Assembly (NCBI GenBank): GCA_032718475.1
Contig: JAUCBJ010004787.1
Coordinates: forward strand, 1 to 64,000
From: Nemertoderma westbladi
Lineage: Eukaryota > Animalia > Xenacoelomorpha
Direction of reading: 5' to 3'
DNA: 64,000 nt
Below are positions 4,208-54,862 of this stretch, piece after piece. The stretch's first letter is position 1, and each line of letters begins with the position of its first letter. Below the pieces are notes generated by a model. It saw nothing but the letters and a program-made list of their open reading frames with translations, had not been told where the DNA came from and searched no databases. A program made the translations under genes and the position numbers.

Positions 4208-4399
4208 TGATAGCAGCTTTATAGTGTTTTTGATATTGGTGAATGTTCTAGAACATTAGTAGAGATATTTTTTTTATGGTAGCTAGTGTTATTTACTAGC
4301 TAGCCCGTCCCTACGATCCATAATCCCGATTACTAACACTCGGCGGAGAGATTTATACAAGAAGCCTGGGTTAGGGCCTCGGCGCATAAACCGATGTGA

Positions 4400-13149: not shown

Positions 13150-13696
13150 TGTGACGGGATCCGAGAGGATCCCGGTTTATCCGGTGTTGGTTACGTACGC
13201 GTCAGCCGCACCGTGTGATGGAAAAGGTGATAAGTTTGTTGTTCCAGTATTGCTAATAATATGCTGATATGAGAGATATAATAACAGATAGCACTAATGA
13301 CTGAATATGGTAATATACTATGGGTGACGGCGGTGATGGTCCTAACTGTCACCGTACTACCTGACTGTACTGACAGACTGAGATAACTGGATGAGTATTG
13401 CATCGACCGGTAATATATATTGCACGGTTTGGCCTTATTACTGTACCTAGTCGATGCTGTCCCCCCATTGGCTAATATCCCTCCCTGTTGGCACCCTTTG
13501 GAGTGTTTCCCTTCACTCCCTGTGTTCTCTCTCGGTTAGGGGTTTGGCCCCTGACCCCTATTGTGTGTTTCTCCTTCCCTTCCCACTTTATTGGGGTGGC
13601 ACGAGGTTGGGTAATCAACCTCGTGCTCCCAATATTGCTTTACGGTTTAATGGCTCACTTTATGGGGTTTGGTGAGGCGGAATTGATTCGCTAACA
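13150..13696 (-). repeat. 3' LTR of B1
   Basis: Direct repeat of 19098-19640 (a few substitutions and one 4-bp indel); abuts the PPT (CTCCCCCCC on +, 13697-13705). Confidence 0.93.
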
Positions 13697-14169
13697 CTCC
13701 CCCCCATGCTATCTTCCCGGTGAGAAGATAGCATCAACCACTAAGTGCGCTTCAATTCCGCTGGAACTCGATCTATTATCGGGTGTGGGGTGGAGTTATT
13801 TTCTTGGAGTCGGCTTTCCAGGCCGCTCCCTATGGGTATGATCTTACTACCCTCTGGCGTCTCGTGTGGGCCGATCGTGCGCTTCTCTCACACAATTTTT
13901 GTTTCCCCAACACTCTCACCACTCTAACTCCGCTCTCTGACTCAACTCGCTCTTACCCTCTCCCCACACCTGAATCGCACTCTTCTCTCTCGCCAACAGT
14001 TCCTTTCACTATCTCCTCTCTACTCCCTGCCACTCTTTAATGCCCTGACCTCTAATGCTACCCCTGTGCTGTCATACTATCTACCTACTACTCACTTGCT
14101 AACTATCTAACTCTCTTACTAACTCTAACTATCTCTCTAAGCCTACTAACTTTAACTCTAACTCTTCTA

Positions 14170-14920
14170 CTACGTGGCGCTTAGGGTGCCCACAACCCTC
14201 TGCTACTACCTCCATCTACGTGGCGCTTGCGGTGCCCACAACCACTCTACTACTAACTCTAACTAAAACCCTCTTACTAACTCTACCTCCATCTACGTGG
14301 CGCTAACAGTGCCCACAACCACAACCGGTACTACGTACCCTCTTACTAACTCTACCTCCATCTACGTGGCGCTAACGGTGCGCACAACCACTCTACTACT
14401 ACTTTAACTAAAACCCTCTAACTCTCTACTAACTCTAACTATACTTAGTCTACCCCTTTCTACTCTCTACGTGGCGCTTGCGGTGCCCACAACCACTCTT
14501 TCACCACCTCTATCTACGTGGCGCTTGCGGTGCCCACAACCACTCTCTGCTACTACTTTCTAAGTGGCGCTTCCGGTGCCCACAACCACTCTCTTCTACT
14601 ACTTTCTACGTGGCGCTTCCGGTGCCCACAACCACTCTCTGCTACTACTTTCTACGTGGCGCTTCCGGTGCCCACAACCACTCTCTCCTACTACTTTCTA
14701 CGTGGCGCTTCCGGTGCCCACAACCACTCTCTTGCTACTTTCTACGTGGCGCTTCCGGTGCCCACAACCTCTCTACCACCGCTACTTTCTACGTGGCGCT
14801 TCCGGTGCCCACGACCCCCCTACTACTACTACTCGTGGCATGACAATATGCCACACTTCCTTACCCCGCCGCCTTCTAACTTACTCTCCTTCTACGTGGC
14901 GCTTATGGTGCCCACAACCC
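14170..14920. repeat. Array of about 13 hairpin units CTACGTGGCGC-N5-GTGCCCACAACC in B1, downstream of the pol remnant
   Basis: Units read directly from the sequence; period about 46 bp in the regular part; C/T/A-rich spacers. Confidence 0.9.
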
Positions 14921-15145
14921 CCCTACTACTACTCGTGGCATGGCAATATGCCACACTCCCTTACCCCGCCGCCTTCTAACCTCTCTACTTACTATCCTTT
15001 ACTACTTCTAACTTTTACTAACTATTATTTTAATTATTTAATTATTTATTATTGTTTATTTAAATTAAATAATTATTTTTGTGGGAAGGGCGTCTCGCCA
15101 TCATTCCCACCCCCCTCAGTCCAAAATATTGGACGACTAAACCTC

Positions 15146-18100
15146 CTAACTAGGGCGATTCTTCCAACAGGCACTCTCCCACTGCTGCTCTTGTAGGTCC
15201 TGTAGGATTCGCCGCACTCTCTTCGCCAATTCCATCTCACCAGGAATTGGTTCTCCCTCCTCTGCCACCCTGAAATCGGGTCTCTCCGCCGCCTTCTTAA
15301 CTAGCTCATCTCCTGGCATCAAAATGCCACCTCTCTCCTTGTTGTCTCCCGCCGGCAGAATGAATAGAAAGTGAAAGAACAGGCAAAACAGGAGGTACAA
15401 CAGCAGTCCTACCCCTCTCCATCCTGCCCCCCCTCTCGACCTCCCCCCCGTCGGCACGCCTCTCAACCGGACCGGCGTCTCCTCCGGATACTCCCCCGGA
15501 CACCCCTCCGGGCTATTGTCCTCCTGACACTTCACCGGACACTCCTCCGGAGTGTTGTCCCCCGGACACCCCGCCGTCCGCTCCCTTCCATCCCCACACC
15601 GACGCCCGCTGGGAAGTCTATTATCCTCCGCCCACTCTCTTATTGTTACTTTCCTGTCTGGCTCTACTATCTCCTCCGGCTTCTTATCTTCGTCCTCTGT
15701 GTCTACGGTGCCTGGTAACATGCACCCATGGTAACATGTCGTTACTGAACGACCGCCCTCTCCTGATATCTTCTCTGGTACTACCCCGAGTAGTACTTTT
15801 CTCTTCTTCTCTTCTGTTGTGCTCGTAGCTGCTGTTTCTCTACACTCTCCGGATCTGTGTCCTTCTACCACACATCGATGACATAGTCCGTTTGCGTCTG
15901 TGTAGGCTACACGATCTTGTTTGGGCAACGCTTGCCAGTGCTTACAACACCTGGTCTTATGAGTTCCGTCCCGGTGTAGTTGACATTTGAATCCTGGATT
16001 ATAGCGTTCCCTGTATAGTCCCTCACGTATGGCGCGTAGGTTTATATGTACCGATTTAGTGTTTTGGTTGTCTGTGTTCGGCCTACTGGGTATATTGGGA
16101 TTATGTTTATTTATGGTGTTATTTTCTTTCTGTCCCTGCCACGGTGTGGCCCTACTACCAGCTAACTGTGGACTAGCAGTCCCCTGTATGGCCGCGTGTG
16201 GTAGCGACTGTCCGCACGACCTGTTCTTGTCCAAGGGGTTCCATGTTCTTGCTCCTATTGGGGTATATTGTCGATATTGTGATGGGGGAATGTCACCCTG
16301 TCCCCCCCGGCCGGTATGTTTGGTACTGGGGTTGATGTTAATGTATTGGGGCCCATACATCTATCTCCAATAACTCCCCCCTCCCCTGGATATATGTTAT
16401 GTCCCTGTGTATTATAGTCATGCTGCTGTACCGATATAGGCCTACCCACTTCCTGCCTACCTACCGGTATGTACTCCGCGACTTCCAGGTCTAATCCCGT
16501 CGTCCGCGCTACCCTATCGCTTACTCTATCTCTCCCAGCAAGGCCTATAATAGTATGTGCAGTAAGGCCTACAGTATGTCCTGCAGTCTGCATGTGCCCT
16601 TCCGAATCGAAGTTTATTTTTCTCGAATCTCGAATCTCCCCGCGACTACCGTACTCTCGATCGGCAGCTATATCACGTCGGGAAGTTTCCCTTCGATCCC
16701 CTATCCTGCTCTCGTCTTCGTATCGGTACATCCTGTACCCCTCTCCTGGCGTGCGGTGCGTTTCTCCGGGGCGACGGCAATCTCCCGAAGTTCGACCCCA
16801 CTGACTCCCTACCTCCATCTCTACTATCGACGGCTCGCTATCCGTCCTCGCTCTCCGGTTGCTCCTAGCAATGACTCTTCTATTATCTTCCTTTCTTCTC
16901 TCCACCACCTCTCGGTTAAACTCTGCTAATCTTCTTCTATCTTCGACCTCTCTATTATACTCTACTAATCTTCTCCTATCTTCGACCTCTCTATTAAACT
17001 CTACTAATCTTCTCTCTTCTGACTGGGCTCGACGTTCCGTCGCCCGCCCTCTCGCGACGTCAACCTGTCTCTCTCTGCTCGATCGCACGCCGCTGGGGAT
17101 ACTCGCAATCCCCCTATTACTCTCCGTCGCCGGGTGTTGCGGTTTACCTAATTCGGCCCGCGCATTATCCGCCGACGCCTGTGGGACACTCCCTGCCCCC
17201 CCTCTCTCGCTACTAATCCCTCGCGGTGGGGTGCCCGTAGCCCCCCCCCCCACCCGCTACTTCTAACTTCACTATCTCTTACTATACTTCTGCGTCCCTC
17301 TTGTCGGACACTCTCTACCCCCTTTCTCTCGCCACTAATCTTCTGTGGTGGGGCGCCCGTAGCCCCCCCCCCCCCACCCGCTACTTCTAACTTCACTACC
17401 TCTTACTACACTTCTACACCCCTCTTGTGGGGCATTCTCTGCCCCCCCCTCTCTCGCCGCTAATCTCATGTGGTGGGGCGCCCGTAGCCCCCCCCCCCAC
17501 CCGCCACATCTAACTCCAATATCTCTTACTTCGTCTCTACACCCCTCTCTAGTCGACACACTGTTTCTACTACGGCTGGGTCTATTCACCCCCGCCTCTC
17601 TCCCTACTACTGCGAGGCCTACCAGGCCCACCCCGGGTTGGCTCAACCCCGCTACCTCCTGCCTACCAACTACGTGGCCTACCAGGCCGCCGTCGGGTTG
17701 GCGCAACCCCGCCACTTCCTGTCTATTAACTACGTGGCCTACCAGGCCGCCGTCTGCCGGGCTATACACGTCTGACACGCTCATATTAATAGCACCATTC
17801 CCAATATTATTTGTTAAATCAATTAAATTATTAGAATTTGAAATGGGATTATTATTTAAATTATTTAAATTAGAATTATTATTATTTTCAAAATTTAAAT
17901 TGCTAATCGAATTATTTGAATTATTTTGATTATTCTGAATATTTGAATTAATATTATTATTTGAATTTAAACTTAAATTACTACTACCGGGTAAAATATT
18001 TCCTGTAATAAAGGGATTAGGGTTATTTACTACGGTACTATTAATACCAATATTTCCTAACGCACTACTACTGTTCTGTTCTCTTGCCTCACGCTCTTCG

Positions 18101-19023
18101 CGTTCACTCTCTTGCTCCTTCCTTCTCCCCATTATCCACTGTAATTTCTCTCTAGTTCTCTCTAATATCTCTCTAGTTTTTAATTCATACGCTGCCAGAT
18201 TTATCTCCTGTACCCTTCTTTCTTTTGCGGAGGATGTAGCAGACTTATCGGTTGCGACGGACTCCCGCCGCCCCTCCGTCCTACTAACTTTCCCCCACTT
18301 TCCGGGGTCCTCGCTGACCGACGAGACCGAATCCTCGGAGCTAACCTCGGATTCGCCCTCGTGCGGTCCCGCCCAACCCACTAACTTAACTTCCCTGGCA
18401 TCGACTAAGTATGGCCCTATGTACACTACACCAGGCCCCATACCCCTACATTCCCATAGCCCAAACAGTTCGAAGGCAACCCCTCTCGCTCTCTCCTCGG
18501 CCAGTTCTCCCTGCCCAGAACGCACTAGGTAATCAAAGTATCTGTTCGACTCACCTAGTCGTCTCCTCAACTTCACCTGGTCTATCTCAGCCCCTCCTCT
18601 AGCTTCCTTCAGTTGTTCCCGGGTCGCGGCGTAGGCTCGTCGAAGCCGGACGACCCCGACGTCCTCGTCATCGACATCTCCTCTCTCCCTCCGGGTTCGG
18701 CGTCGTACCGTCGGCCCCACCGTTGCCGTTCCGGTGGGCCATCCGTCGCCCTCGGCCTGTGGCTGGCCGGCGACATCGGTATATCGACCGCCGTCGTGTG
18801 TCGACTCGTATCTCTCCTCCCCCGTCTCGCTCTCTCCTCTACTCGACTCGCTCTCTCGCTGTAGACGATCCCCCACATCTTGGTTCGCCGGGTTACTCGT
18901 TATCGACGTGGTCGACGTAGCATCGACCGGCGTCGTGGGTCCGTATCGTCTCGCCGTGGCCTCGCGGATCGTTAGATCGCCGTCCGGGGTCCGCGGCGGT
19001 GTCGTTTCTCTCTCTCGACTCAT
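15146..19023 (-). pseudogene. B1 gag-like region (N-terminus, Asn-rich tract, CCHC knuckles), protease start and pol C-terminal remnant
   Basis: MSRERETTPPRTPD is homologous to B2 MSQSGETTPTRTPD; CHRCVVEGHRSGEC knuckle; VLLGVVP protease start; CLLEESP-stop matches the B2 pol end CLLEGAP-stop. Confidence 0.75.
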
Positions 19024-19097
19024 GTTCGTCCTCTGTCTGTGTCTAGCAGTTACAGTTCGGCAGGCCTAGAGTTAGGACTGGGACGGTTAGTTAGGAC

Positions 19098-19640
19098 TGT
19101 GACGGGATCCGAGAGGATCCCGGTTTATCCGGTGTTGGTTACGTACGCGTCAGCCGCACCGTGTGATGGAAAAGGTGATAAGTTTGTTGTTCCAGTATTG
19201 CTAATAATATGCTGATATGAGAGATATAATAACAGATAGCACTAATGACTGAATATGGTAATATACTATGGGTGACGGCGGTGACGGTCCTAACTGTCAC
19301 CGTACTACCTGACTGTACTGACAGACTGAGATAACTGGATGAGTATTGCATCGACCGGTAATATATATTGCACGGTTTGGCCTTATTACTGTACCTAGTC
19401 GATGCTGTCCCCCCATTGGCTAATATCCCTGTTGGCACCCTTTAGAGTGTTTCCCTTCACTCCCTGTGTTCTCTCTCGGTTAGGGGTTTGGCCCCTGACC
19501 CCTATTGTGTGTTTCTCCTTCCCTTCCCACTTTATTGGGGTGGCACGAGGTTGGGTAATCAACCTCATGCTCACAATATTGCTTTACGGTTTAATGGCTC
19601 ACTTTATGGGGTTTGGTGAGGCGGAATTGATTCGCTAACA
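19098..19640 (-). repeat. 5' LTR of B1
   Basis: Direct repeat of 13150-13696, upstream of the gag ATG at 19023. Confidence 0.93.
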
Positions 19641-41437: not shown

Positions 41438-43932
41438 ATGGCCGACGATTTCAGTAAACTTCATAGCGACGTCACGACGTTATTTCGTTCAATAAAGCAA
41501 AAGAAAAGTGTCTCCAATGACGATGAGAAGCGGATCTCCGATTTGTTGATGGCCATGAACTCCATCTACACCACCACATTAACTGACGTAGCAGAGGCTA
41601 GGAAAATCGCTGTCGACGCGCAACAAGAAGCCATATTGAGTAAAAATAAACTCATCGATGTTCTACAAAGCAATGCTACCGGTACATCAATCGTAGGCGG
41701 GTACCCAACCCAGCCTTCCTTCAGTTCTGTGGGTTCCAACGGCGGCAACCGACAGCCGCTTGTGAACCCCCACGTCGCTAATTCCCAAGTTCCTCGTACA
41801 ACCGCAATTTCCTTTCTGCATTTCCGCATTTCCACTGGTTTTGGGTCGTAAAACAGGTGGCCCTCTTCGCGCTGCCAAGCCACCCCCAACCCTAACACCG
41901 GGCGTTCTCATGTCCACATTGGCCGGCTGGACTTATCGACAACCCGAGACGATATACCGGATTACCTAAGACGAGAAGGCGTTAGTTTTCAGGATGTTAT
42001 TCAGCTACCTCTGAAAGACGGAAATTCACCATTCCAGAGTTTCCATATCATATGCGAACACGAACAACGAGACAACATTATGGACCCCTCATTAAGGGAA
42101 GAAGGGATTAGCATCCGCAACTACCGGCTGTCCGATAAGGATCGGGCGGATCTCGGGCTCCGTCCACGAGCGACCCGCGCAGCCGACTCGGACAGTCAGG
42201 TCCCTGCAGACAATACTCAACGTACGATAAACATAAACAATACAGCCTAGGTCAGGAGCGTTGATGTACAAGTATCGGTTCGTTTGTGGAATGTAGAAGG
42301 ATACCGTTACCTCGCTACCAATCTTACTGATATCCAACTCTACGGCAACTGTGATGTCGTACTATTTACAGAAACAATGTTTACCGATGAGACCCTAAAC
42401 CCAAACTCGTACTACCCATATATTCAGCCCGCAACTAAACCGAGTAGGGGTCGGCCGGTAGGAGGTCTCATGATTCTCTGCAGGCCTTGGCTAACCCCAA
42501 GTTTAATAAAACAGTCTGATCATTATATCGTAATAAAATCATCCTGTGCGTATTTTGCAGTATTCTATTTCCACCCTGATGTCCCATTAGCAGAAATATT
42601 ACTGATAATATTCGAGGCGCTCTCCTACACGAACCCCAACATTCCTATTATAATAGGAGGGGACTTTAACTGTCGGCTCGACTTTGGATCACGCGGAACT
42701 GAACTCACCACTGACCTCGCCAACATTGGTTTTATTGGATTAAACTCTCCAACGATTCCCACATATATTTCGCCCCAAGGACAGAGCGTTATCGATTTGA
42801 TGTTTGTAAAATTCCAGTGTCCAACACAGGCGCCACTGCCGCACTTAATAGTCGAGCAGAACCCTGCAAGGAAACACCAACCAGTATCTGGTACTTTCTC
42901 TTTGGCTTCCAGTTTACCGATCCCTCAGAACATGCCAGCACGTCTATCCCGTAAAATAAATCTACAAAATTTCATATCCCACCCTAACCATACAGGTATC
43001 TACCAGCAGCTAGCAGTGAATAATATAGATAATGCCGCCGATCTTCTAACCGAGCTAATGGCGGACTCGACGATCCCGAAGAAATCGAAAATCTTTGGTA
43101 AACCTTGGTTCGATACAGAATGTCGCAGGTCAAAACAACAGTTAATCGCCGCCATGGATGTTCGAAATAACTCAACTGCCGAACAATCCAACTTCTGGTA
43201 CCTCAGGAAAGAATACAAAGCTTTAACAAATCGAAAACGAAACAAATTCGAGGAGGACACACTTATGGATCTTGTTAGCCGCTCAGAAATTAAACCATGG
43301 CTATTACATAAAGAGTATAAACGCACAATTGCCCCTATCGACCCAGCCACATTGAAGTCTCATTTCCAAGATCTGCTCGGAGTTTCTGGAGACGTTCCTA
43401 ATGTTCCTACAATACAGACAACCTCGCTCAATGAACGGCTAGATACCGAATGGTACAACGACCCAATTACGGAGAACGAGATAGCCCATAGTATAAACAT
43501 GTGCAATAACGGGAAAGCTAGCGGTATGGATGGTATCTTTTATGAACACCTCAAACTCACAATGCCATTTATACTTACATTGCTGTTGGTGTTGTATAAT
43601 GCCTGTCTAAATATTGGCAGACTACCGCAACGCTGGAAGGAATGCATAATCCTTCTCCTATACAAAGGCAAAGGACTAATTACAAAACCAGATAACTACA
43701 GGGGAATTGCATTGTTATCTGTATTTATTAAAACTCTCACATCTATAATAAACACTCGTGTTCGATGGTACATAGCACACAAAATTCCGTCGGAACAATA
43801 TGGTTTTATGCCTAATAAGTCTACGGCCGATGCCCTACGTATACTGATAAACGACATTTACTCTGCTTTACAATCGGCAAATAAATCAGATCGAAAAATG
43901 TATGCAGCATTTGTAGATTTTCAGAAAGCCTT
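41438..43932 (+). mobile_element. RTE-X-like LINE (ORF1 and APE-RT ORF2) interrupted by B2 and A2
   Basis: ORF1 from ATG 41438, with an RRM-like VHIGRLDLSTT segment after a frameshift; ORF2 breaks at FVDFQKAF exactly at the B2 TSD. Confidence 0.8.
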
Positions 43933-44008
43933 TGTTAGCTTATTCAATTCCGCTAACACCCCACAAAGTCAACCGTTAAGCAATATTGGGGGCCACGAGA
44001 TTGGGTAA
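42284..44008 (+). CDS. LINE ORF2: APE endonuclease and N-terminal RT (last ~25 aa are read-through into the B2 LTR)
   Basis: Motifs WNVEG, FTETM, GGDFN, SVIDL, KPWFD, NYRGIALLS, QYGF and FVDFQKAF. Confidence 0.88.
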   Translation: MWNVEGYRYLATNLTDIQLYGNCDVVLFTETMFTDETLNPNSYYPYIQPATKPSRGRPVGGLMILCRPWLTPSLIKQSDHYIVIKSSCAYFAVFYFHPDVPLAEILLIIFEALSYTNPNIPIIIGGDFNCRLDFGSRGTELTTDLANIGFIGLNSPTIPTYISPQGQSVIDLMFVKFQCPTQAPLPHLIVEQNPARKHQPVSGTFSLASSLPIPQNMPARLSRKINLQNFISHPNHTGIYQQLAVNNIDNAADLLTELMADSTIPKKSKIFGKPWFDTECRRSKQQLIAAMDVRNNSTAEQSNFWYLRKEYKALTNRKRNKFEEDTLMDLVSRSEIKPWLLHKEYKRTIAPIDPATLKSHFQDLLGVSGDVPNVPTIQTTSLNERLDTEWYNDPITENEIAHSINMCNNGKASGMDGIFYEHLKLTMPFILTLLLVLYNACLNIGRLPQRWKECIILLLYKGKGLITKPDNYRGIALLSVFIKTLTSIINTRVRWYIAHKIPSEQYGFMPNKSTADALRILINDIYSALQSANKSDRKMYAAFVDFQKAFVSLFNSANTPQSQPLSNIGGHEIG

Positions 44009-44477
44009 CCAATAACTCGTGTCACCCCAACAAAGTGGGAAGGAGAAACGCACAATAAGGGTCAGGGGCCAAACCCCTAACAGAGGGAGAATAGCTGGAG
44101 TGAACGGGAACACTCCAAAGGGCGCCAACAGGGATATTAGCCAATCAGGGGGGAAGCATCGGCTAGGTACTGTAGCAAGGCCAAACCGTGCAATATATTA
44201 TTAGGTACCAGCAATCATTCAGTTCAGTTATCTCAGTGTGTTATTGGTGTTAGTTAGGTTAGTTTAGCTAGGGAAGTACCGGGACTTCAATCACCGTATC
44301 CCGCCTTCCATATATCAACATTCAGTCTATACATTACAACATATCTATCTTATATCTATCTATTATACCCGGAAATTATATACGACGAACAACGCAAACT
44401 CTTTTACCTTTCACACACGGCGGGGACGCGTAGATTGACAAACGGATAAATCGGGATCCTTCGTGGATCCCGTCACA
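43933..44477 (+). repeat. 5' LTR of B2
   Basis: Near-identical to 54316-54857; CCAAT and TATA-like motifs; terminal hairpin CGGGATCC-N5-GGATCCCG. Confidence 0.95.
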
Positions 44478-44547
44478 GTGATTGAAACCAAGCTGCTACC
44501 CCTAGTTAGCTAAACAGTGACTACCAGCCACCAATCTAAAGTACGAG

Positions 44548-46460
44548 ATGAGTCAGTCAGGAGAGACGACACCGACGCGGACCCCGGACGAAGAACTAAC
44601 GATCCGCGAGGCCGCGACCAGACGGTATAGGCCCACGACGCCGGACCCATCGGTAACGGGTCACCCGGCAGATCAGGATGGAGGGGACCGTCTGGAGTCA
44701 GAGATCGAGCCGAGAGAACCGGGAGCCGAGTTGGGAGAAGGAGAGGGCGAGAGGGACGGAGAAGAAGACGAGTCGACACGGAACGAGGGTCGACGTGCCG
44801 ATGTCGCCGGCCAGCCACAGGCCGAGGGCGACGAACGGCCCACCGAAACGGCGACGGTGGGACCGACGGTACAACGCCGGACCCGGAGAGATGAGGGAGA
44901 TGTCGGTACCGATGTCGCCGGCCAGCTACAGGCCGAGGGCGACGGACGGCCCACCGGAACGGCGACGGTGGGGCCGCCGGTACGACGTCGGACCCGGAGA
45001 GACGGAGGAGAGGTCGGCGACGAGGACGTCGGGGTTTCTGATCGACTTCGACGGGCCTACAACGCGACCCGGAAGCTACTCAAGGAGGCCAAGGAGGGGG
45101 CGAAGATAGATGAGGTGAAGTTAACAAGAGGACTAGGTGAGTCGGATAGACATTTTAGCTATCTAATGCGTTTCGGGCAGAGAGAACTGGCCAAGGAGAG
45201 AGCGAGAGGGGTTGCAGAGGAACTGTGTGATTTATGGCGGTGTAGGGGTATGCAACCTAGTGCAGTGTACGTAGGGCCATACTTAGTCGATGCCCAGGGT
45301 GTAAAATTTGTGGGTTGGAGGAGACCTGAGGAGGGCGAATCTGCGGGAGGTTGAGCCCGAGGATTCGATCTCGTCGGTCGGGGGAAGTTCTGGGAAGAGG
45401 GGGAAAGTTAGTAGGTCGGGAAGGCGGAGGGAATCCGTCGTAACCGATAAGTCTGCTACATCCTCCGTAAAAGAAAGACGGGTGAGAAAGATAAATGCCA
45501 CGTACCATCTCGACCTGATAGAGCAAGGTCAGAGAGAGTTAAATAGACGGTTAGAGGAGGGGAGAATACAACTAGAGAGGGAAGCGGTACTGATTAGAGA
45601 AACCAGAGAGAGGGCCGAAAGGGCCGCGAAAAGCCTTAGAGAGTGTGAGGAAATAGGGAGGAAGGAACAAGAGGAGCGTGTGGCGAGAGAGAAAAGTGAA
45701 CGCAAAGAGCGTGAGGCGGAACGCAAGGAACGTGAGGCGAGAGAGGAAAATGAACGCAAGGAACATGAGGCGAGAGAGGAGAATGAATGCAAGGAACGTG
45801 AGGCGAGGGAAGAAAGTGAGTGTAGAGAGCGTGAGGTGAGGCGAAGGGAAGGAGCTAAGAGAGAGGCGGAATTGGCCGACCAGAACGCACGGGAGGATCG
45901 GGAGAGAATGGCAAGAGAGGGGCGTGAGCGAAAAGAGTGGGAAAGACAGCAAAACGAGCTTATAGAGTACAAAGCTAGACGCACGCGCGAACTAGAACTG
46001 GCGCGGATAGGGGCATCTGAGAGCGGGACTGGCTCGAATATTTTCGAGGAGCCAAGGGCCGTGGATACATTTATTAATACCCCACTTACAGGGACCGCAC
46101 GACAGACACGAAACTGGTGTGACCGTACGGGCGGGGGGGGGGGGGGGGGGGGGGGGGTAATAATAATATTACCGTAGGCGATGTTAATATTAATGGTACC
46201 GTATCGGATAATCCTAACCAAGCTTATATTGCAGGAAATACTTTGCCTGGTAGTAGTAATTTGAATTTAAATACAAATAGCCTAAATAATAATTTCAATT
46301 TAAACGTGCAAAATAATTCGAATAACAATTTAAATTTAGAAAATAATAATAATTCAAATAATTTAAATAATGATCCAAGCCCGAATTTACAAAACAATTC
46401 AAATAGTGTAGTCACGCAAAATAATCCAAATGATTCTATTTCGAACGAACAAAATAATTC
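44548..46460 (+). pseudogene. B2 gag N-terminal region (frameshifted; coiled coil, Asn-rich tract); capsid, NC and protease absent
   Basis: ORFs 44548-45354, 45308-46177 and 46243-46551 are colinear with B1 ORF 17335-19023. Confidence 0.75.
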
Positions 46461-46480
46461 AGTAGAGCGTAGAGGAGTCT

Positions 46481-49400
46481 ATGAAGTGCGACGAGGGGCG
46501 GTACACCATAGGAATGGTATGGAAACTACCGAAGTTACCACTGCCCGATAATAGAGGGATGGTACTCACGAGGCTCCGCAAGCTGAAACAAACACTAAAA
46601 CGGAGCCCCGAGAAGAATGAGTACATCCACAGAACGATTAAGAAGTACGTCGAGAAAGGATGGGCCGTGGAGTTACCGGTCGACGAACCAAACACGGACA
46701 GGACATATTACCTGCCACTCCACGTGGCTTTAGACCCAAAGAAAGGTAAACTGCGGATGGTAGTTGACGCATCGGCAAAGACCAACGGAAAATGCTTAAA
46801 CGACTATCTGCTAGAAGGTCCAAACATATACAACTCGGGGATAGAGGTCCTACTTAGATTTAGAAATGGGAAACACGCCTTCACGTGTGACATAGAAGGC
46901 ATGTTCAACCAAGTCCGTGTAACGGAGGAAGATAGCGACAGTCAACGCTTCTTATGGTATAACGGCGAGGAAGAACCGTCGATAATACCGACGTACAAGA
47001 TGGTAGTACAGAACATGGGAGCCAAGTCGTCTTCATTTACGACGACTATGGCAGTGAGAGATACAGTGAAGGGGAAGGAGGATAGATACAGCACTAGGGC
47101 CGTCGATATGATTCGACGCGGCTTCTACGTAGACGACGGAATGGAGTCTGGAAATACGGTTAAGGAGATACTGGACACAGGGCGCGAGGTTCGCGACATC
47201 CTAAAAGGATCCGGCTTTAACCTGACCAAATTCCAATCCAGTTCGGAGGAATTTATCAAGGCGATAGAGGACAAGAGACCAGAATCGACCATGGATAATC
47301 CCACAACAGCCAAAGGGCAGGACATGGCGAACAAGAGGACAGAATCTCAACAGAAGGCACTGGGAATCGTGTGGAACAGAGAGACAGACGAACTGAAGTA
47401 TCAGCTGAGCCAGGAGGGCGCAGACATCCACACGAAGAGGGGCTATGTGTCGTATATAGCAAGGATATACGATCCCCTAGGTCTAGCATCCCCACTATTA
47501 GTCACGGGGAAACAGATACTCAAGAGAGTATACAAATTGAAGGATGAGTGGGACGTAGAGGTACCAGAGGAGATCAAGAAACAGTGGTGTAAGTGGACAG
47601 AAGATTTGGAGAAGATGGGAACATACAACATGCCACGAGTGTATTTCCCGGATGGGAACATGACGAATCTGGACCTACACATGTTCTCCGATGCGTCGTT
47701 GGAGGCGTACGGAGCGGCACTTTATTTAGTACAACGAGAGGGGGCTCACAAGCCCAGACTGGCCTTTAGCAAAGCAAAGTCAACGCCGCCAGATTCAGCA
47801 TCAGTTCCCAAATTAGAATTGACAGCTGCGAGACTAGGAGTTAGAGCCACAGCCTACCTAGTGGATACTATTCCCAACATAGTGGAGACACACTACTGGA
47901 CGGACTCCATGGTAGTGCTTGGTTGGCTACATAACGAAAGGACGAGATACCCAATATTCGTCGCGAATAGGGTGGACGAGATAAGGGCGACCACAGAATT
48001 GGAAAGGTGGCACTACTGCCCGACGGACGAGAACCCAGCGGACTTGTTATCAAGGGGCGTGGCACGCCACACTTTCTTAAAAAAGGAAGGATTGTGGCAA
48101 CACGGGCCGCAGTTTCTGAGCGACAAGGAGGCCTGGCCGCCGATGAGAAAGGTGGACCCGGACTCAGGAGAGGTAGTGTCAGAAGGAGAAGAGGGAGATT
48201 CAGAGGGAGAAGAGATATACTCCCAGATGGTGAGGGAGATAAGGGACGTGCAACCTAAACCAGAAGAACTGTGCGATAACCCGACAGATAAACTCCTCAG
48301 CTACAGCTCTAGTTGGTATAAGACCAAGAAATTAGTGGCGTACTGGAGAGCCTTCGGGAATTTCCTCGCGGGAGTTGGCAAAGACAAGAAGATCAGGACA
48401 ACCATAGATCTGGAAGGAGCGGCCAAGGCAGTCATCCGCTATGAACAACGGAAGAACTATGGCGACGAGGTGGAACGCGTCGGTAAACAACAGCACCTTC
48501 GACGGGACAGCGAGCTGATCACGCTGTCGCCACAACTTAATGACGACGGGATTCTAGTAATGAATTCTAGGGTGGGATACAACAACAGCATAGTCGTACC
48601 ACCGAAACCCATCATCATTCCCACAGGATCGCCAATAGTCCACCAGATTATCTGGGACTCCCACAAGTCGATATTGCACGGGGGCACCAACCGAACTCTC
48701 ACGGAGATAAGGAGGACCTTTTGGGTCAAGCAGTTGAGGAAGAAGGTAAAAGCGGTAGTGGGGCAGTGCCAGACCTGCCGACGAGCGAAGAAGGAGCGAG
48801 CCATACAAGAGATGGCACCACTACCAGCGAGTAGAGTAAGACAGCACGACCCGCCATTTACACATTGCGGTGTGGACATGTTCGGGCCGATAAAGATCAA
48901 GGTGATGCGGCACACGGAGAAACGCTACGGTATTATCTTCGTATGTAACAACACGCGGGCGGTAGGGATAGAACTCGCCCAAGATGCAACCGCATCAGCA
49001 TTTATTAATGCATTAGAAAGATTCAGAGACCGCAAAGGTGGGACGATCGCAGTAATGTACTCCGACAGCGGAACCAACTTTGTGGGAGCAGAGAACGAGA
49101 TGGCAGAGGCCTTGGACATCTTGGAAGGGGAGGAAGTCAGGGCGGCCATGAGACGACGACAAGTAAAGTGGGAGAGAAGGACGCCGTATGCACCACATAC
49201 ACTAGGATGCGTCGAGAGACTGGTGGGCAGTTCAAAGCGTCTCATGACGAAGCTAATGAACACCCACATGGTCACCGAGGACGTCTTGAGGACAGTGCTT
49301 GCGAAGTGCGAGGGTATCATTAATAGCAGACCGCTATATCCGGAGAATGATGACCCTGAGTCATTAGATGTGCTGACACCCAGCCATTTTCTAATGGAAA

Positions 49401-49771
49401 GGCCAGCGACCATCGATATGCGGGGTGTAGACCCAGATGACATACACTCCCGCCAGAGTTGGAAGGTCGCTAAAGCAATAAGCGCAGAGTATTGGAGGAG
49501 GTGGGTTGAGGAATACCTACCCACGCTTCACAAAAGAAGCAAGTGGAGGAAGTCGAATAGGGAGTTAAGAGAGGGAGATCTCGTAATCGTTACGGATGAT
49601 ACTATCATCAACAACCAGTGGCGGTTGGCGAGAGTCGTAGGCACTTACTCCGATGAGGACGGAAGAGTCCGATCGGTAGAAGTGCGGATAGGTGGCAAGA
49701 TCGGTGCGAAAGACAGAAAAACCTACAGGAGAGCTGTAGGGAAATGCTGTCTATTAGAAGGGGCACCTTAG
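46481..49771 (+). CDS. pol: BEL/Pao pol: RT, RNase H, integrase (1096 aa, uninterrupted)
   Basis: RMVVDAS, CDIEGMFNQV, FYVDD, FSDAS, PKLEL, WTDS, NPADLLSRG, H..H...CQTC, GVDMFGP, YSDSGTNFVG, CVERLV and W.LARV...D.VR.V. Confidence 0.95.
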   Translation: MKCDEGRYTIGMVWKLPKLPLPDNRGMVLTRLRKLKQTLKRSPEKNEYIHRTIKKYVEKGWAVELPVDEPNTDRTYYLPLHVALDPKKGKLRMVVDASAKTNGKCLNDYLLEGPNIYNSGIEVLLRFRNGKHAFTCDIEGMFNQVRVTEEDSDSQRFLWYNGEEEPSIIPTYKMVVQNMGAKSSSFTTTMAVRDTVKGKEDRYSTRAVDMIRRGFYVDDGMESGNTVKEILDTGREVRDILKGSGFNLTKFQSSSEEFIKAIEDKRPESTMDNPTTAKGQDMANKRTESQQKALGIVWNRETDELKYQLSQEGADIHTKRGYVSYIARIYDPLGLASPLLVTGKQILKRVYKLKDEWDVEVPEEIKKQWCKWTEDLEKMGTYNMPRVYFPDGNMTNLDLHMFSDASLEAYGAALYLVQREGAHKPRLAFSKAKSTPPDSASVPKLELTAARLGVRATAYLVDTIPNIVETHYWTDSMVVLGWLHNERTRYPIFVANRVDEIRATTELERWHYCPTDENPADLLSRGVARHTFLKKEGLWQHGPQFLSDKEAWPPMRKVDPDSGEVVSEGEEGDSEGEEIYSQMVREIRDVQPKPEELCDNPTDKLLSYSSSWYKTKKLVAYWRAFGNFLAGVGKDKKIRTTIDLEGAAKAVIRYEQRKNYGDEVERVGKQQHLRRDSELITLSPQLNDDGILVMNSRVGYNNSIVVPPKPIIIPTGSPIVHQIIWDSHKSILHGGTNRTLTEIRRTFWVKQLRKKVKAVVGQCQTCRRAKKERAIQEMAPLPASRVRQHDPPFTHCGVDMFGPIKIKVMRHTEKRYGIIFVCNNTRAVGIELAQDATASAFINALERFRDRKGGTIAVMYSDSGTNFVGAENEMAEALDILEGEEVRAAMRRRQVKWERRTPYAPHTLGCVERLVGSSKRLMTKLMNTHMVTEDVLRTVLAKCEGIINSRPLYPENDDPESLDVLTPSHFLMERPATIDMRGVDPDDIHSRQSWKVAKAISAEYWRRWVEEYLPTLHKRSKWRKSNRELREGDLVIVTDDTIINNQWRLARVVGTYSDEDGRVRSVEVRIGGKIGAKDRKTYRRAVGKCCLLEGAP

Positions 49772-49908
49772 GGTGGAGTTAGAGTGTAGTTTAGTCGTCC
49801 AAGTTTGGACTGAGGGGGGTGGGATTGAGGGCGAGACGCCCTTCCCACACATAAAATAAAAATAAAATAAATAAAAATTAGAGTTAGTTAGTTAGGAGTT
49901 AGTTAGAA

Positions 49909-50358
49909 GGTACGTAGTACCTAGAGTTAGTTAGTTAGTTAGTTAGGAGTTAGTTAGAAGGTACGTAGTACCTAGAGTTAGTCAGTTAGAAGGTACGTAG
50001 TACCTAGAGTTAGTTAGTTAGTTAGTTAGGAGGTACGTAGTACCGTTAGTGAAGTTAGAGAGTTAGAGGGTACGTAGTACCGTTAGTTAGAGAGTAGTAA
50101 GAGGGTACGTAGTACCGTTAGTGGAGTTAGGATAAGAGTTAGAGGGTACGTAGTACCGTTAGTGGAGTTAGAGAGTAGTAAGAGGGTACATAGTACCGTT
50201 ATTGGAATTAGAGTAAGAGTTAGAGGGTACGTAGTACCGTTAGTTAGTTAGAGAGTAGTAAGAGGGTACGTAGTACCGATTAGTGGAGTTAGAGTAAGAG
50301 TTAGAGGGTACGTAGTACCGTTAGTTAGTTAGAGAGTAGTAAGAGGGTACGTAGTACC
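49909..50358. repeat. Array of 12 palindromic GGTACGTAGTACC units with TTAG/GAG-rich spacers between pol and ORF3
   Basis: Units start at 49909, 49960, 49992, 50032, 50069, 50104, 50145, 50185 (one mismatch), 50226, 50265, 50307 and 50346. Confidence 0.92.
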
Positions 50359-50797
50359 GATTAGTAAGAGATAGAGGTGGAAGGGTATACATAGTATTGA
50401 TATTAGTCAGTAGTTAGTAGCGAGAGGGGGGCATATATATGAGTACAGTTGGATAGATCGTGTAGGCCACGCGACATATACTGCTGTACTGCACAGGCCC
50501 ATAGAGTAGGTCAGAATGTGGATTATGAAATAGAATAAATTCCATAAGCAATAAATAGTAGAAATAGATTAGAAATAAAATAGAGTAAATAGGGCTAAAA
50601 ATTACAAATTATGGTAACAGGAGGGAAATTATTCTGGAACATAATTAAAGCAACGGACAGAAATTGCAAATAGGGTACATTTGTTAGCTACAAAATTAAG
50701 TAATAGAAATTAGGCTAAAAGGCGTAGTTAGATAGAAAATAGGCCAGTCTCGAACTGTGCAGACCATCAGAAACTTGTCACTCATCTGTATTGCGCC

Positions 50798-53407
50798 TTG
50801 GTAAGGCACCACCTTGCAGGTGAGCGAGTGAGAGTGTTCGGAATGGCGGGAAAACTGATCAGAAAGAGAAAGGCGGAGTCAGGAGGAAAGGAGATACTGG
50901 TGGATTTCACCAAGAGGCATCCGGAAGAGAAGACGAGAGGATACTACGAGAGGTTGGAAAAGGGTCACGCGGCACGAGCGCTGCAGGACCACTTCCGGGA
51001 GATGCACGAACAGCGGCTGGTCGGGACCTATGGGACGCCGTCGCTGGACAACGCAATCTTCCAACACTTCCACTACGTGGTGAAAGGGGACGAGGCGAAG
51101 TTCGGGATTCCGAAGTACCCGAGGGAGTCGCCGAAGAAGGATTGGAAGAGGTTCATGGAGTCCGTCAACAGGGGAGGATATATGATCCTAGACGACGAGG
51201 GAACCGTGGAAGACGAGGTGGGTTCGAGACGAGGATCAGCGGGGTCGGCCAGGACCATACTCCTACATTTGGCCGCGCCAAATGGGGACATTTTCTTATT
51301 CGATCTAGGAACGTATGGGAAAAAGGACGGGCCGAAGTTAAACCGGTTGCCGAAAGCGGTGCAAGTCTTGGTAAGAGAGAAGTCGACGACGAAGGTGGGA
51401 TCGGCGATTCGCGAGGACGCGGGGAGAATCATCGGTCCGGACGCCACCAACCTCCTGGATATGCAGAAGGTCTTCATGGCTATGACGGCACCAGATGGGT
51501 TGGGAGTAGTCGGGAACACAGGCCAATGCGGGGCGGTGGCAATGGGCCAGCTATTGGGGCTCGTATGCCACAAACCGATGGTCTGGGGGAAGTTCAGGGA
51601 GGAATACGGAGCAGAACTAGCGAACTCGCTAAAGTGGGGAGTGAGACCGGGAAGGCAAGAGGTGTATCAATTCCGCAGAGGAGCGATAAAGGTATATCAG
51701 AAGCGATATATCCTGCAGGAAGATTGGATAATGATAAGTTTACTTAACTTATTCATGACCATGGTTATCGAGAGGGAACCAGCAGCATTTCTGTTATCGG
51801 GATCACCCCTAAGCTACAGGAGAGCCTTTAAGACGGCCTTCGACGGTCTGGTAGACCACCCGGGGCTGAAGGGCGAGTCGGTGTACTACAACAGCCGACA
51901 TCTGATAGACGGGGAGACAGATACGCCGTATCAGAGATGGGAGCAGCTAGAGACGGATAGACGAGAGGCAAAGCGACTGGAAGAAGTCGCTAGACGGGAG
52001 AGGATAGAAGCAGAGGAGAGGGAGGAGGAGGCCAGGACGCAGAGTTATGGCTTCGAGGAACAGGCAGGCTTAGACGAACTTCGTTGGACTTCATCAGGGA
52101 GTTCGGGGGAGTCTCTAGGGCGAGAACTGGGATGGATGGTGGGATCGCCGAAACAGTCGACGTCGGGGTTGCAAGCGATGCCCATACCAGTGGGCGCCGA
52201 AGGCGACCAACCGCCACGGAAGTTAAGGGAGCTAGAGGGATGGAGAGCTACGGGCGAGAGCCAAGGCGGGAAGGGACATAGTGGATCCATCGGGATACCG
52301 GGGTTGGAACCACTGCCAGAGGAGCATGAAGACGACGACGAATTTGGAGAGATGCCGCCCATCGGGAGGATAGGCCACTCGGACACAGACTGGGTTGGCG
52401 GGAGGGTGGTGACGGCCAGTGGGCCGGGGGCCTTCTGGGATAGACCCGGCAAGCGGGCCTGGGTCCGCGAGGAACCGGCGATGGATATCGCGGGGAGCAC
52501 TATCAGGTTGGGCGAGCAACCGGGGACGGCACCACGGGTAGTATTCGGGGAGACGATGCCCGAGAGGGGCGAGGAGATCGACGTAGACAGGGACACTAAT
52601 GTGCAGAAGTTCGCCTACCAGCGACTCCACAGACCGCAGAGATCGCTTGGGACGAAAGACGATGTGGGGCGGGAGACATTGGTACTCGGTTGCGATTACT
52701 GTGGGAGACAGACCCACCAGGAAAGGAGCTGTTTGTACCGATTCCAAAAGGGGACCTTTTGTCTCTACTGCCGCGAGTCGAGCCACAGGATGGGGGCGTG
52801 TCCACGGTTGCATAACCGATGTCCGAAGTGTAACTTTCGGGGACACTACGGACGCCAGTGCGACTGGATGGACGACGAAGAGAAGTTCAGAACCTTCGAG
52901 GAGTGGGCCGACGTCGGGGCCATGACGCACCAGCGCATGAAGGCCCAGGAGTTCAAGTGGGGTTTCTTCCTTATCAACCAGGAGGCTCACATGGAAATCA
53001 TTAAGCGGAGGCTACCGTTTACCTATCACGAGGTAGCAACGGCGGCGTCGTATGCCGGGGTGATAAATACACAGAGGTATTTGGACAGGTGGACGCCACA
53101 GAATCGAGGGGAGTTTAGGGATTTCCTGGCGGAGCACGTACCACGGGCAATGAAGATGATCTTATGGGACGCCACCAGGGGGAGACAACAGGGCCACTCG
53201 GAGGGGCCACCCGCGAAGCGATATCGGGAGCTGATAACACCAGCACCCAAAGAGCCAACGACCGGGATCAGTAAGGAGGTGGCGGCGAGGGTCCGAAGAC
53301 AGAAAGCGGATCCCAGAGGAGCGGTAGTGACCAGGAAACGACCCAGGGAGGAGGACAGCAAAGAGAAAGACTTGAGGTGGTTCCCAAAGTCAGGGGGGAT
53401 GAACTGA
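50798..53407 (+). CDS. ORF3: DEDDy 3'-5' exonuclease (WRN/EXD2/Mut-7-like) plus three CCHC zinc knuckles; first ATG at 50843
   Basis: ExoI MILDDEG, LLHLAAPNGDIFLFDL, LPKAV..LV...TKVGSAIRED (ExoII), W..RP...YQKRYILQED (ExoIII); three CX2CX4HX4C at 52691-52861. Confidence 0.8.
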   Translation: MVRHHLAGERVRVFGMAGKLIRKRKAESGGKEILVDFTKRHPEEKTRGYYERLEKGHAARALQDHFREMHEQRLVGTYGTPSLDNAIFQHFHYVVKGDEAKFGIPKYPRESPKKDWKRFMESVNRGGYMILDDEGTVEDEVGSRRGSAGSARTILLHLAAPNGDIFLFDLGTYGKKDGPKLNRLPKAVQVLVREKSTTKVGSAIREDAGRIIGPDATNLLDMQKVFMAMTAPDGLGVVGNTGQCGAVAMGQLLGLVCHKPMVWGKFREEYGAELANSLKWGVRPGRQEVYQFRRGAIKVYQKRYILQEDWIMISLLNLFMTMVIEREPAAFLLSGSPLSYRRAFKTAFDGLVDHPGLKGESVYYNSRHLIDGETDTPYQRWEQLETDRREAKRLEEVARRERIEAEEREEEARTQSYGFEEQAGLDELRWTSSGSSGESLGRELGWMVGSPKQSTSGLQAMPIPVGAEGDQPPRKLRELEGWRATGESQGGKGHSGSIGIPGLEPLPEEHEDDDEFGEMPPIGRIGHSDTDWVGGRVVTASGPGAFWDRPGKRAWVREEPAMDIAGSTIRLGEQPGTAPRVVFGETMPERGEEIDVDRDTNVQKFAYQRLHRPQRSLGTKDDVGRETLVLGCDYCGRQTHQERSCLYRFQKGTFCLYCRESSHRMGACPRLHNRCPKCNFRGHYGRQCDWMDDEEKFRTFEEWADVGAMTHQRMKAQEFKWGFFLINQEAHMEIIKRRLPFTYHEVATAASYAGVINTQRYLDRWTPQNRGEFRDFLAEHVPRAMKMILWDATRGRQQGHSEGPPAKRYRELITPAPKEPTTGISKEVAARVRRQKADPRGAVVTRKRPREEDSKEKDLRWFPKSGGMN

Positions 53408-54277
53408 GACTTCAATGTGGTACGCCTGGAAGGCGCCACGTGGGACGTACGAACTATTAAGTACAAATTCAAAATGATGCAAATAATTAAATAAGTGCAA
53501 TTTATATGTACGTACGTAGTAATCAGTAGTTTAGCAATGAAATATACGTTCGAAGTAAGTACTATAGTCATTCAACCTTTCTCAATTAGCTACTGGGACT
53601 GGGGGGCTAACTGACTATGGCACTATGGACGAGACACTACACAATTTCACACTTCTTGAGTGCGACGGCACAGGAGGGGGGGGTGAGATTCGTCAGAAGG
53701 GATGGGGTAGTCAAAGAGGGGTTGAGTAAAGGTGATAGTGCGGAGTGCGAAGAGAGTGCGAATACAATTCAAGTGTGAGGGAGGAATAAGAGGCTGAGTG
53801 AGGGGCAGAGTGGTAGTGAGGAGAAGTAGAGGAGAGTCAGAGTGAGAACAGTATAGAGTTAAAGTGGCACAAGTGTTGGGGAAACAAAAATTGTATGAGA
53901 GGAGCACACGATCGGCCCGACATGGGACGCCAGGCAAACCGGGTAGCGATATCATACCCATGGGGAGCGGCCTGGAAAGCCGGCTCCGAGAGAAAATAGT
54001 TCCACCCCACACCCGAGTGTGGGGGAGGAGAAGTGAGAGGAAGAGTGTGGGACGAGGAGGTCCGGGAGTATGCGAGAGTTGGAGTAGAGTGGTGAGAGTG
54101 TTGGGGAAACAAAAATTGTATGAGAGAAGCGCACGATCGGCCCGACACGAGACGCCAGAGGGTAGTGACATCATACCCATAGGGAGCGGCCTGGAAAGCC
54201 GACTCCGAAAAAATATACCCACCCCACACCCGATGCTAGATCGGGATCCAGCGGAATTGTAGCGCACTTTAAGGTGG

Positions 54278-54315
54278 ATGCTATCTTCTCACCGGGAAGA
54301 TAGCATGGGGGGGAG
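54278..54315 (+). promoter_or_regulatory. Conserved hairpin and polypurine tract before the 3' LTR
   Basis: ATGCTATCTTC-N7-GAAGATAGCAT then GGGGGGGAG|TG; identical in B1 (13697-13734, minus). Confidence 0.85.
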
Positions 54316-54857
54316 TGTTAGCTTATTCAATTCCGCTAACACCCCACAAAGTCAACCGTTAAGCAATATTGGGGGCCACGAGATTGGGTAACCAATAACT
54401 CGTGTCACCCCAACAAAGTGGGAAGGAGAAACACACAATAAGGGTCAGGGGCCAAACCCCTAACAGAGGGAGAATAGCTGGAGTGAACGGGAACACTCCA
54501 AAGGGCGCCAACAGGGACATTAACCAATCAGGGGGGAAGCATCGGCTAGGTACTGTAGCAAGGCCAAACCGTGCAATATATTATTAGGTACCAGCAATCA
54601 ATTATTCAGTTATGTCAGTATGTTATTGGTGTTAGTTAGGTTAGTTTAGCTAGGGAAGTACCGGGACTTCAATCACTGTATCCCGCCTTCCATATATCAA
54701 CATCCAGTCTATACATTATAACATACTATTTATATCTATCTATTATACCCGGAAATTATATACGACGAACAACGCAAACTCTTTTACCTTTCATACACGG
54801 CGGGGATGCGTAGATTGACAAACGGATAAATCGGGATCCTTCGTGGATCCTGTCACA
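54316..54857 (+). repeat. 3' LTR of B2
   Basis: Direct repeat of 43933-44477. Confidence 0.95.
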
Positions 54858-54862
54858 GCCTT

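Follow-up and report, generated by a model that had tools for sequence, protein, structure and literature searches.

Separate open reading frames (ORF3s) encoding DEDDy exonucleases have been described in the Juno, Vesta and Athena/Terminon elements of bdelloid rotifers by Rodriguez, Kenefick and Arkhipova in 2017 (PMC5408684; reviews in PMC6431247 and PMC5718144). For BEL/Pao elements, env is the only extra gene given in the profile of the International Committee on Taxonomy of Viruses (ICTV), and the same is true of the available part of a BEL/Pao survey (PMC3118150), where the word 'exonuclease' has 0 occurrences. Here we analyze a window of 64,000 nucleotides from Nemertoderma westbladi (Xenacoelomorpha; contig JAUCBJ010004787.1 of assembly GCA_032718475.1, positions 1 to 64,000, forward strand) and describe a BEL/Pao element at 43933-54857 with a frame of this kind, called ORF3 below. 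As judged from its sequence, ORF3 would extend the DEDDy ORF3 theme to BEL/Pao, with knuckles of the RNA-binding type added. 

Like its bdelloid counterparts, rightly cited as a precedent in a preliminary description of this DNA, ORF3 is a separate DEDDy frame after pol, in the place of env and without a membrane segment, and has one acid altered (DEED in the rotifers, the fourth acid here). It differs from them in its host element, a BEL/Pao outside the Juno/Vesta/Athena clades, and in having 854 amino acids with three CCHC knuckles, while only a Cys-His-Cys motif is reported in two of the rotifer DEDDy ORFs. No relatives surfaced in searches with the whole protein, with the knuckle region, or among 1.84 billion proteins. 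The RNase D of Trypanosoma brucei (TbRND; PDB 7C42; PMC7797062) likewise joins an N-terminal DEDD exonuclease to C-terminal CCHC knuckles, and was retrieved both with a structural model of ORF3 guided by an alignment (Z 11.0, root-mean-square deviation (rmsd) 4.0, 199 aligned residues) and with the knuckle region. TbRND, however, works in mitochondria as a cellular enzyme, and its four knuckles follow a linker of 28 residues, compared with three knuckles and about 300 residues in ORF3, whose ExoII motif is of the WRN/EXD2 type; the two architectures are probably convergent. The preliminary description had found the union of exonuclease and knuckles unfamiliar in BEL/Pao, which agrees with our searches for that group, although the architecture itself is known from TbRND. 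No BEL/Pao element with an exonuclease ORF was found in the literature search, outside of which lay most subscription journals and Repbase.

With WRN, EXD2 and Mut-7 (Nibbler) of the PF01612 family, ORF3 shares an ExoI D-x-E, a KVG-x5-D ExoII and a Q-x2-Y ExoIII in register, and differs from them in its identity of 13-21% (below Pfam detection), in a Glu for Asp in ExoIII and in long inserts. In Fig. S1 of PMC3706591, where the domains of WRN, Mut-7, RNase D and Dada are aligned, the motif spacing equals that of ORF3. The Dada transposons of Laccaria and Ectocarpus described there also carry a DEDDy domain with a similar ExoII and a CCHC finger on the same polypeptide; unlike in ORF3, the domain has all four acids and is part of the DDE transposase, into which it is inserted, of a DNA transposon.

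ORF3, a candidate DEDDy exonuclease with zinc knuckles

No stop interrupts the ORF3 frame between 50732 and its stop codon at 53405-53407 (891 codons from stop to stop), and the chance of 891 sense codons at the local base composition is about 1e-17. It had been proposed as an 869-codon ORF in the env position; its openness inside the long terminal repeats (LTRs) and its location between pol and the 3' LTR were confirmed, but its start was not, since 50798 is a TTG and the first ATG lies at 50843. From this ATG, in a good Kozak context (GGAATGG, with a purine at -3 and G at +4), the protein of 854 amino acids is encoded at 50843..53407 on the forward strand; residue numbers are counted from 50798. 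Basic clusters at 50861-50872, 53216-53227 and 53336-53347 provide ORF3 with basic ends at both termini, as anticipated. No membrane segment was found in ORF3, its highest 19-residue hydropathy being 1.32, on the ExoIII helix. The envelope traits sought (signal peptide, membrane anchor, glycoprotein homology) were also missing, the N-terminus being basic and without a family match. Because of this low hydropathy maximum and the basic N-terminus, we conclude that ORF3 is not an envelope protein.

The splice-acceptor-like site noticed before the ATG is present as placed: CCTTGCAG at 50812..50819 (forward strand) ends 23 bases upstream of the ATG, and the pattern has only 4 separate matches in 44478-50850 (6.4 kb). 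The site reads CAG/GTGAG and thus also fits the donor consensus. Donor-like sites occur in the leader of the element; a gag-ORF3 fusion via the strongest donor in gag (45137) was rejected, as the junction is out of frame.

The putative DEDDy exonuclease domain (WRN/EXD2/RNase D-like) extends over 51137..51787 of the forward strand and includes D132, E134, D207, Q301, Y304 and E308. Conventional searches did not detect it. ORF3 had no match in Pfam and NCBIfam, where the curated cut-off of PF01612 was not reached, nor in a PDB sequence search, nor in a phmmer search of residues 1-370 from the ATG against 1.84 billion representative proteins. Word-index searches with the whole protein (7985 candidates scored) and with the knuckle region, an exact look-up of ORF3 and searches of viral and prokaryote contigs returned no homologue. 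One stretch of the viral collection was flagged as related to the knuckle region, but no locus was returned. The weak matches that tblastn gave in plasmids and a phage (E 6e-3 to 5) turned out to be spurious, both of those inspected lying in other proteins, an unrelated one of 704 amino acids and a transporter-like one.

Methods that compare features, profiles and motifs gave a different picture. A comparison of ESM features for residues 95-360 placed ORF3 with a cluster of 3'-5' exonucleases (0.94) in which 50% of the members have PF01612 and with which it shares 178 features; two unnamed clusters scored 0.95 and 0.94, and all 10 of the 10 best named matches belong to the PF01612 family or clan. 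These features support a DnaQ-like fold independently of the alignment-guided model. Against a profile of 36 PF01612 proteins, ORF3 scored 13.5 bits, a value that none of 2000 shuffles and none of 2000 shuffles with the motif kept attained, and that is significant only as a pairwise comparison. The alignment used to fetch these proteins had 49 rows, one of them ORF3 itself. With the motif masked, 15 of 2000 shuffles reached the score. An hhalign comparison with the same profile gave 80% (E 1.4e-5, 97 columns), and a subset of 15 proteins gave 11.7 bits and 60%. In a motif-anchored alignment, the upstream half of the domain beat shuffles in six settings (z 1.5-3.6, with 0-21 of 300 shuffles scoring as high). 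A scan of prokaryote genomes with the ORF3 ExoII motif, a targeted look because the motif was chosen by resemblance, returned 120 loci, 104 with the motif in frame. ExoI and ExoIII patterns accompany it in 76 of these 104, and PF01612 was confirmed in 7 of the 9 loci checked; for one of them the nearest PDB entries are WRN, Nibbler and EXD2. A narrow bacterial profile (76 proteins) was discarded: its 10.0 bits were equalled by 34 of 1000 motif-kept shuffles, and nothing was found with the motif masked.

The alignment-guided AlphaFold model (predicted local distance difference test (pLDDT) 71.6, predicted template modelling score 0.72) matched DEDD structures with Z 12.1 to 11.0 and rmsd 3.3-4.5 over 170-202 residues, which shows compatibility only, as the input alignment already carried the fold. 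The structures matched were those of the apicoplast polymerase exonuclease, diDNase, WRN, RNase D, Nibbler, Egalitarian, EXD1 and TbRND. A single-sequence model failed (pLDDT 37), and its fold searches were uninformative. Part of the sequence evidence counts against an exonuclease: the downstream (ExoIII) half of the domain failed to beat shuffles (39-204 of 300, z -0.5 to 1.1), so that significant sequence support is confined to the ExoI-ExoII stretch, and masking the motif lowers hhalign to 7% with 36 proteins and 2% with 15. Overall, the DnaQ-like fold first proposed from the sequence is favored by ESM features, profile and alignment, though not by Pfam, PDB or phmmer, with the guided model biased by its input; we consider it very probable that ORF3 carries a DEDDy fold.

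The codons of the residues discussed lie at 51191 (D132), 51197 (E134), 51416 (D207), 51707 (Y304), 51719 (E308) and 51722 (D309). The ExoI D-x-E and ExoII D had been placed correctly and are in register; for ExoIII, Y304 and the placement of the residues stand, but the column of the canonical acid is occupied by E308 and not by D309. In an alignment of 71 rows, D132, E134 and Y304 are invariant (71/71) and D207 falls on the ExoII column. Q301 and Y304 align with ExoIII, with E308 in the D column and D309 one position further, within the weak downstream half. The retention of three acids and the Tyr, with an identity of no more than about 13-21% to any row, suggests catalytic constraint, and we regard catalytic activity of ORF3 as likely. 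It is uncertain because E308 occupies the position of the fourth acid, which is D in 70 of 70 homologues, and TbRND without its ExoIII Asp is reported to keep trace activity only (PMC7797062). The substitution, found in 0 of 70 homologues, also fits a weak or dead RNA-binding adaptor that would escort or localize element RNA, as with EXD1, Maelstrom or Egalitarian; EXD1 and Maelstrom are described as inactive DEDD derivatives that retain RNA binding (PMC5408684). The long inserts (ExoII-ExoIII spacing of 97 vs a homologue median of 65), the combination of basic nuclear signals, coiled helix and knuckles, and the Egalitarian-BicD-RNA entries at the top of the Foldseek ranking point the same way. 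However, the top-ranked folds differ by no more than about 1 Z unit and derive from the alignment-guided model, D309 could stand in for the ExoIII Asp, and three acids, Gln and Tyr are all retained despite strong divergence; we therefore hold such an adaptor to be rather unlikely.

Downstream of the exonuclease, a charged helix at about 51893-52033, where the end of the helix reaches a pLDDT of 81-92, is followed by a linker rich in G, P, S and E, the two occupying 51893..52672; disorder of the linker is judged from composition alone. The three knuckles reported earlier were verified as exact CX2CX4HX4C motifs at 52691..52861, starting at 52691, 52760 and 52820 and separated by spacers of 9 and 6 residues, and a hydrophobic-rich segment without a family match follows at 52862..53167 (all on the forward strand). 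The CX2CX4HX4C knuckle is absent from all 36 longer PF01612 proteins, a small sample, and a comparison with BEL gag gave no support for a derivation of the ORF3 knuckles from it (best E 0.21). The knuckle region matches TbRND at E 0.096, with retroviral nucleocapsids scoring equally.

ORF3 might act as a counter-defence nuclease that strips oligo-U decay tails from element RNA or trims and destabilizes PIWI-interacting or small interfering RNAs (piRNA/siRNA). TbRND, the one solved DEDDy and CCHC protein retrieved, favors U-rich 3' ends through its knuckles (PMC7797062), LINE-1 is restricted by uridylation (PMC6191937), and the small-RNA pathway proteins Nibbler/Mut-7 and EXD1 tie for the best fold match. 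The weak TbRND knuckle match, shared by nucleocapsids, and the linker of about 300 residues instead of 28 argue the other way, the uridylation evidence concerns a non-LTR element, and in the available part of Rodriguez et al. (PMC5408684) ORF3s have no clear link to copy number. We judge counter-defence to be doubtful, and place it ahead of the adaptor.

The BEL/Pao element and the probable residence of ORF3

The element is delimited by a 5' LTR at 43933..44477 (545 bp) and a 3' LTR at 54316..54857 (542 bp), both with TG..CA ends, by a polypurine tract at 54307..54315 and by a 5-bp target-site duplication, GCCTT, at 43928..43932 and 54858..54862 (all on the forward strand); it interrupts the endonuclease/reverse transcriptase frame of a long interspersed nuclear element (LINE) beginning at 42251. 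The LTRs are 97.6% identical, with 529 matches, 13 mismatches (11 of them transitions) and 3 one-base gaps, and the element is a recent insertion. Its pol is open over 1101 codons (46466..49771, forward strand), and encodes a reverse transcriptase (YVDD), an RNase H and an integrase; two families of BEL/Pao are recognized in it, Peptidase_A17 (E 5e-41) and DUF5641 (E 4e-24). The order reverse transcriptase-RNase H-integrase together with BEL-specific families is that of BEL/Pao, and the earlier assignment to this group is upheld by the sequence of pol, the LTRs, the target-site duplication and the polypurine tract. The gag region (44549..46460, forward strand) is broken, with a frame shift near 45345 relative to a sister element described below, followed by poly-G and stops, and no nucleocapsid knuckle or protease motif was found in 44478-46480. 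This loss of gag and protease is a defect of the individual copy and does not affect its class.

Integrases process their own DNA ends, and the integrase frame of the element is open with its core motifs present; both observations speak against a function of ORF3 in trimming single-stranded 3' ends of complementary DNA (cDNA) before integration, as do the knuckles, which usually indicate RNA. Such end-processing has been proposed for the DEDDy insert of Dada (PMC3706591), and it would be in line with the ExoII motif of the WRN/EXD2 type, the nuclear-signal-like basic ends and the first place among the fold matches that WRN and the proofreading domains of polymerases share with others. We find it very unlikely, the least probable of the functions considered.

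Between pol and ORF3 lies a tandem array (49880..50400, forward strand) with 11 copies of a 10-base unit, and a lone unit is found directly 3' of ORF3 at 53512..53521, so that the ORF3 cassette is flanked by this unit. It occurs 13 times in the window vs 0.12 expected: 11 times in the array (49910-50356), at 53512 and at 14329, in the array of the sister element. The cassette may have been gained or lost by recombination at the unit; no terminal inverted repeats were found around it.

The synonymous codon use of ORF3 correlates with that of gag (0.79) and pol (0.75), compared with -0.45 to 0.33 for the 7 other frames of the window, and T at four-fold sites amounts to 6% in ORF3, 5% in gag, 10% in pol and 14-44% in the others. 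Because its codon use resembles that of the element's own gag and pol, long-term residence of ORF3 in the element lineage is supported, though not shown. Both pol and ORF3 are fully open despite the 13 substitutions and 3 indels of the LTRs and the broken gag, and are thus better preserved than expected under neutral decay, as far as a weak rate estimate can show. From the LTR divergence, about 1.1 nonsense changes and at least 1.5 indels would be expected in ORF3 and none was seen, a weak rate estimate that rests on 3 LTR indels. A contig search with pol returned one short, distant contig.

The sister is a non-autonomous element at 13150..19640 on the reverse strand, 72-92% alike in the shared blocks and without pol and ORF3. 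It is young, its LTRs differing at 4 positions and its target duplication being GAATA, and it contains gag remnants and a 46-bp tandem array. It is the single related element in the window, and shares the blocks that flank ORF3 but not ORF3 itself, which argues against long residence. A one-off insertion absent from other copies had been named beforehand as what would refute the proposal; the outcome is divided, as the only related copy in the window lacks ORF3 but also pol, and the codon bias of ORF3 argues against such an insertion. ORF3 could be a passenger, that is, a captured frame without a current role, or a misread domain that merely mimics DEDDy motifs: it is present in one copy only, Pfam, NCBIfam, PDB-sequence and phmmer searches gave no match and the single-sequence fold failed. 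Its 854 open codons, element-like codon bias, motifs in register and, as weaker evidence, the missing nonsense changes and indels speak against this explanation, and we consider it improbable.

A self-complementary primer site and the proposed role of ORF3

A primer-binding site of 18 nt for tRNA-Arg/Gly is typical of Belpaoviridae according to the ICTV profile. No TGG of a tRNA-type primer site was found in the 80 bases after the 5' LTR of either element. Instead, the first 9 bases after each LTR perfectly complement a 9-mer in the element's own LTR, with matching flanking context. In the ORF3 element, the primer-binding position 44478..44486 pairs with the candidate self-primer at 44286..44294 (forward strand, LTR position 354; second copy at 54668-54676), and in the sister 19097-19089 pairs with 19295-19287 (reverse strand, LTR position 346). 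The two elements differ at 6 of 9 positions on each side, and all 6 differences (6/6) are compensated; crossed pairings between element and sister form only 3 of 9 pairs. Among shuffled LTRs, such a 9-base complement occurred in 18 of 3000 and 8 of 3000. A hairpin with 8-bp arms at the 3' end of the LTR (44452..44472, forward strand) is also present in the sister LTR, although its loop differs there. In the sister, the fold of LTR and leader gives a pairing probability of 0.77-0.98 in 3 of 3 starts. The self-complementary primer site, with its 6/6 compensated differences between two related BEL/Pao families, is a finding independent of the role of ORF3.

A comparable arrangement is known from Tf1/Tj1 (PMC4600332), in which the primer site complements the element's own LTR without a tRNA, next to a hairpin. 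Those elements belong to the Ty3/gypsy group, use a primer from the mRNA 5' end that is released by RNase H and, in the available account, have no exonuclease ORF. Here, unlike in Tf1/Tj1, the element is a BEL/Pao, the complement comprises 9 bases at about LTR position 350, and priming is predicted from sequence. The orientation of the 9-mer would allow its 3' end to prime at the LTR edge. A TATA-like AATATATT followed by TCAGTT initiator-like motifs is found in the LTR at 44192-44230 (LTR positions 260-292), upstream of the 9-mer, which is therefore probably internal to the RNA; the TCAGTT initiator consensus is presumably of the arthropod type. A primer made by splicing inside the LTR found no support in the ORF3 element, with 0 of 626 and 0 of 545 junctions, and in the sister LTRs one 10-base gain was found in each (668 and 647 junctions tried).

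We propose, tentatively, that ORF3 is a knuckle-guided 3'-5' exoribonuclease that trims the self-primer of the element for reverse transcription. The protein would be made from a subgenomic, perhaps spliced, RNA, and its knuckles would, like those of the trypanosome RNase D, bind RNA, here that of the element in single-stranded form. A fragment of element RNA, cut or ended downstream of LTR position 362, may anneal to the primer site, and the exonuclease would strip its unpaired 3' overhang as far as the duplex. The reverse transcriptase could then start from the resulting 3'-OH at the LTR edge; self-priming requires a defined 3'-OH at LTR position 362. Primer finishing is ranked first because trimming of an overhang yields the end that is needed and because the CCHC knuckles of TbRND bind RNA and strongly raise trimming (PMC7797062). 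Of the three functions suggested in the preliminary description, primer maturation is the one that the self-complementary primer site indirectly supports. In our ranking it is followed by counter-defence, an RNA adaptor, a passenger or misread domain and, last, cDNA trimming.

Besides the limits of the ExoIII half and its altered acid, several observations weigh against primer finishing. The fold of the element's own 5' LTR and leader gives a pairing probability of 0.00-0.09 in 3 of 3 starts, and the sister retains the self-pairing without ORF3, although pol is absent there too. The 9-mer would lie about 60 bases past the likely start, whereas the self-primer of Tf1 is located at the mRNA 5' end and is generated by RNase H cleavage (PMC4600332). 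In addition, ORF3 and the primer site are connected only by their co-occurrence in one element. That a BEL/Pao lineage as a whole has abandoned tRNA priming and carries its own exoribonuclease to trim RNA to a 9-base self-duplex is accordingly a speculative proposal, to which we give less credence than to the trimming role.

Genomic surroundings and meaning of the finding

The window is largely nested transposon DNA. Directly after the 3' LTR, a long repeat starting with TGTTACG occupies 54861-57000 and has a copy at about 21010-22950 (to 23000) that is 70-77% alike; it is possibly another LTR or the end of an element. Related gag/protease-like regions with a BEL-type knuckle triad, 84% alike, are located at 58257-62980 and 4303-6591, and a BEL-like integrase frame at 11441-12313. 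What is likely a DNA transposon lies at 36243-39822, a 522-codon minus-strand frame without a Pfam match enclosed by terminal inverted repeats (about 225 bp, 93%), and an inverted repeat with 287-bp arms is present at 36460-37164. Gypsy-type pol fragments and several LINE fragments are found at 29737-33276, 6258-8537, 553-2159 and 42251-44008.

The role of retroelement-borne DEDDy exonucleases has been a standing question since the 2017 report on rotifers, and the short self-primer duplex offers a concrete candidate substrate for the ORF3 exonuclease. If primer finishing is true, reverse transcription would be initiated by trimming, and this would be the first function assigned to a DEDDy ORF3. 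If U-tails or small RNAs are stripped instead, ORF3 would be a transposon-encoded counter-defence nuclease. Either outcome would explain the repeated capture of the DEDDy fold by unrelated retroelements.

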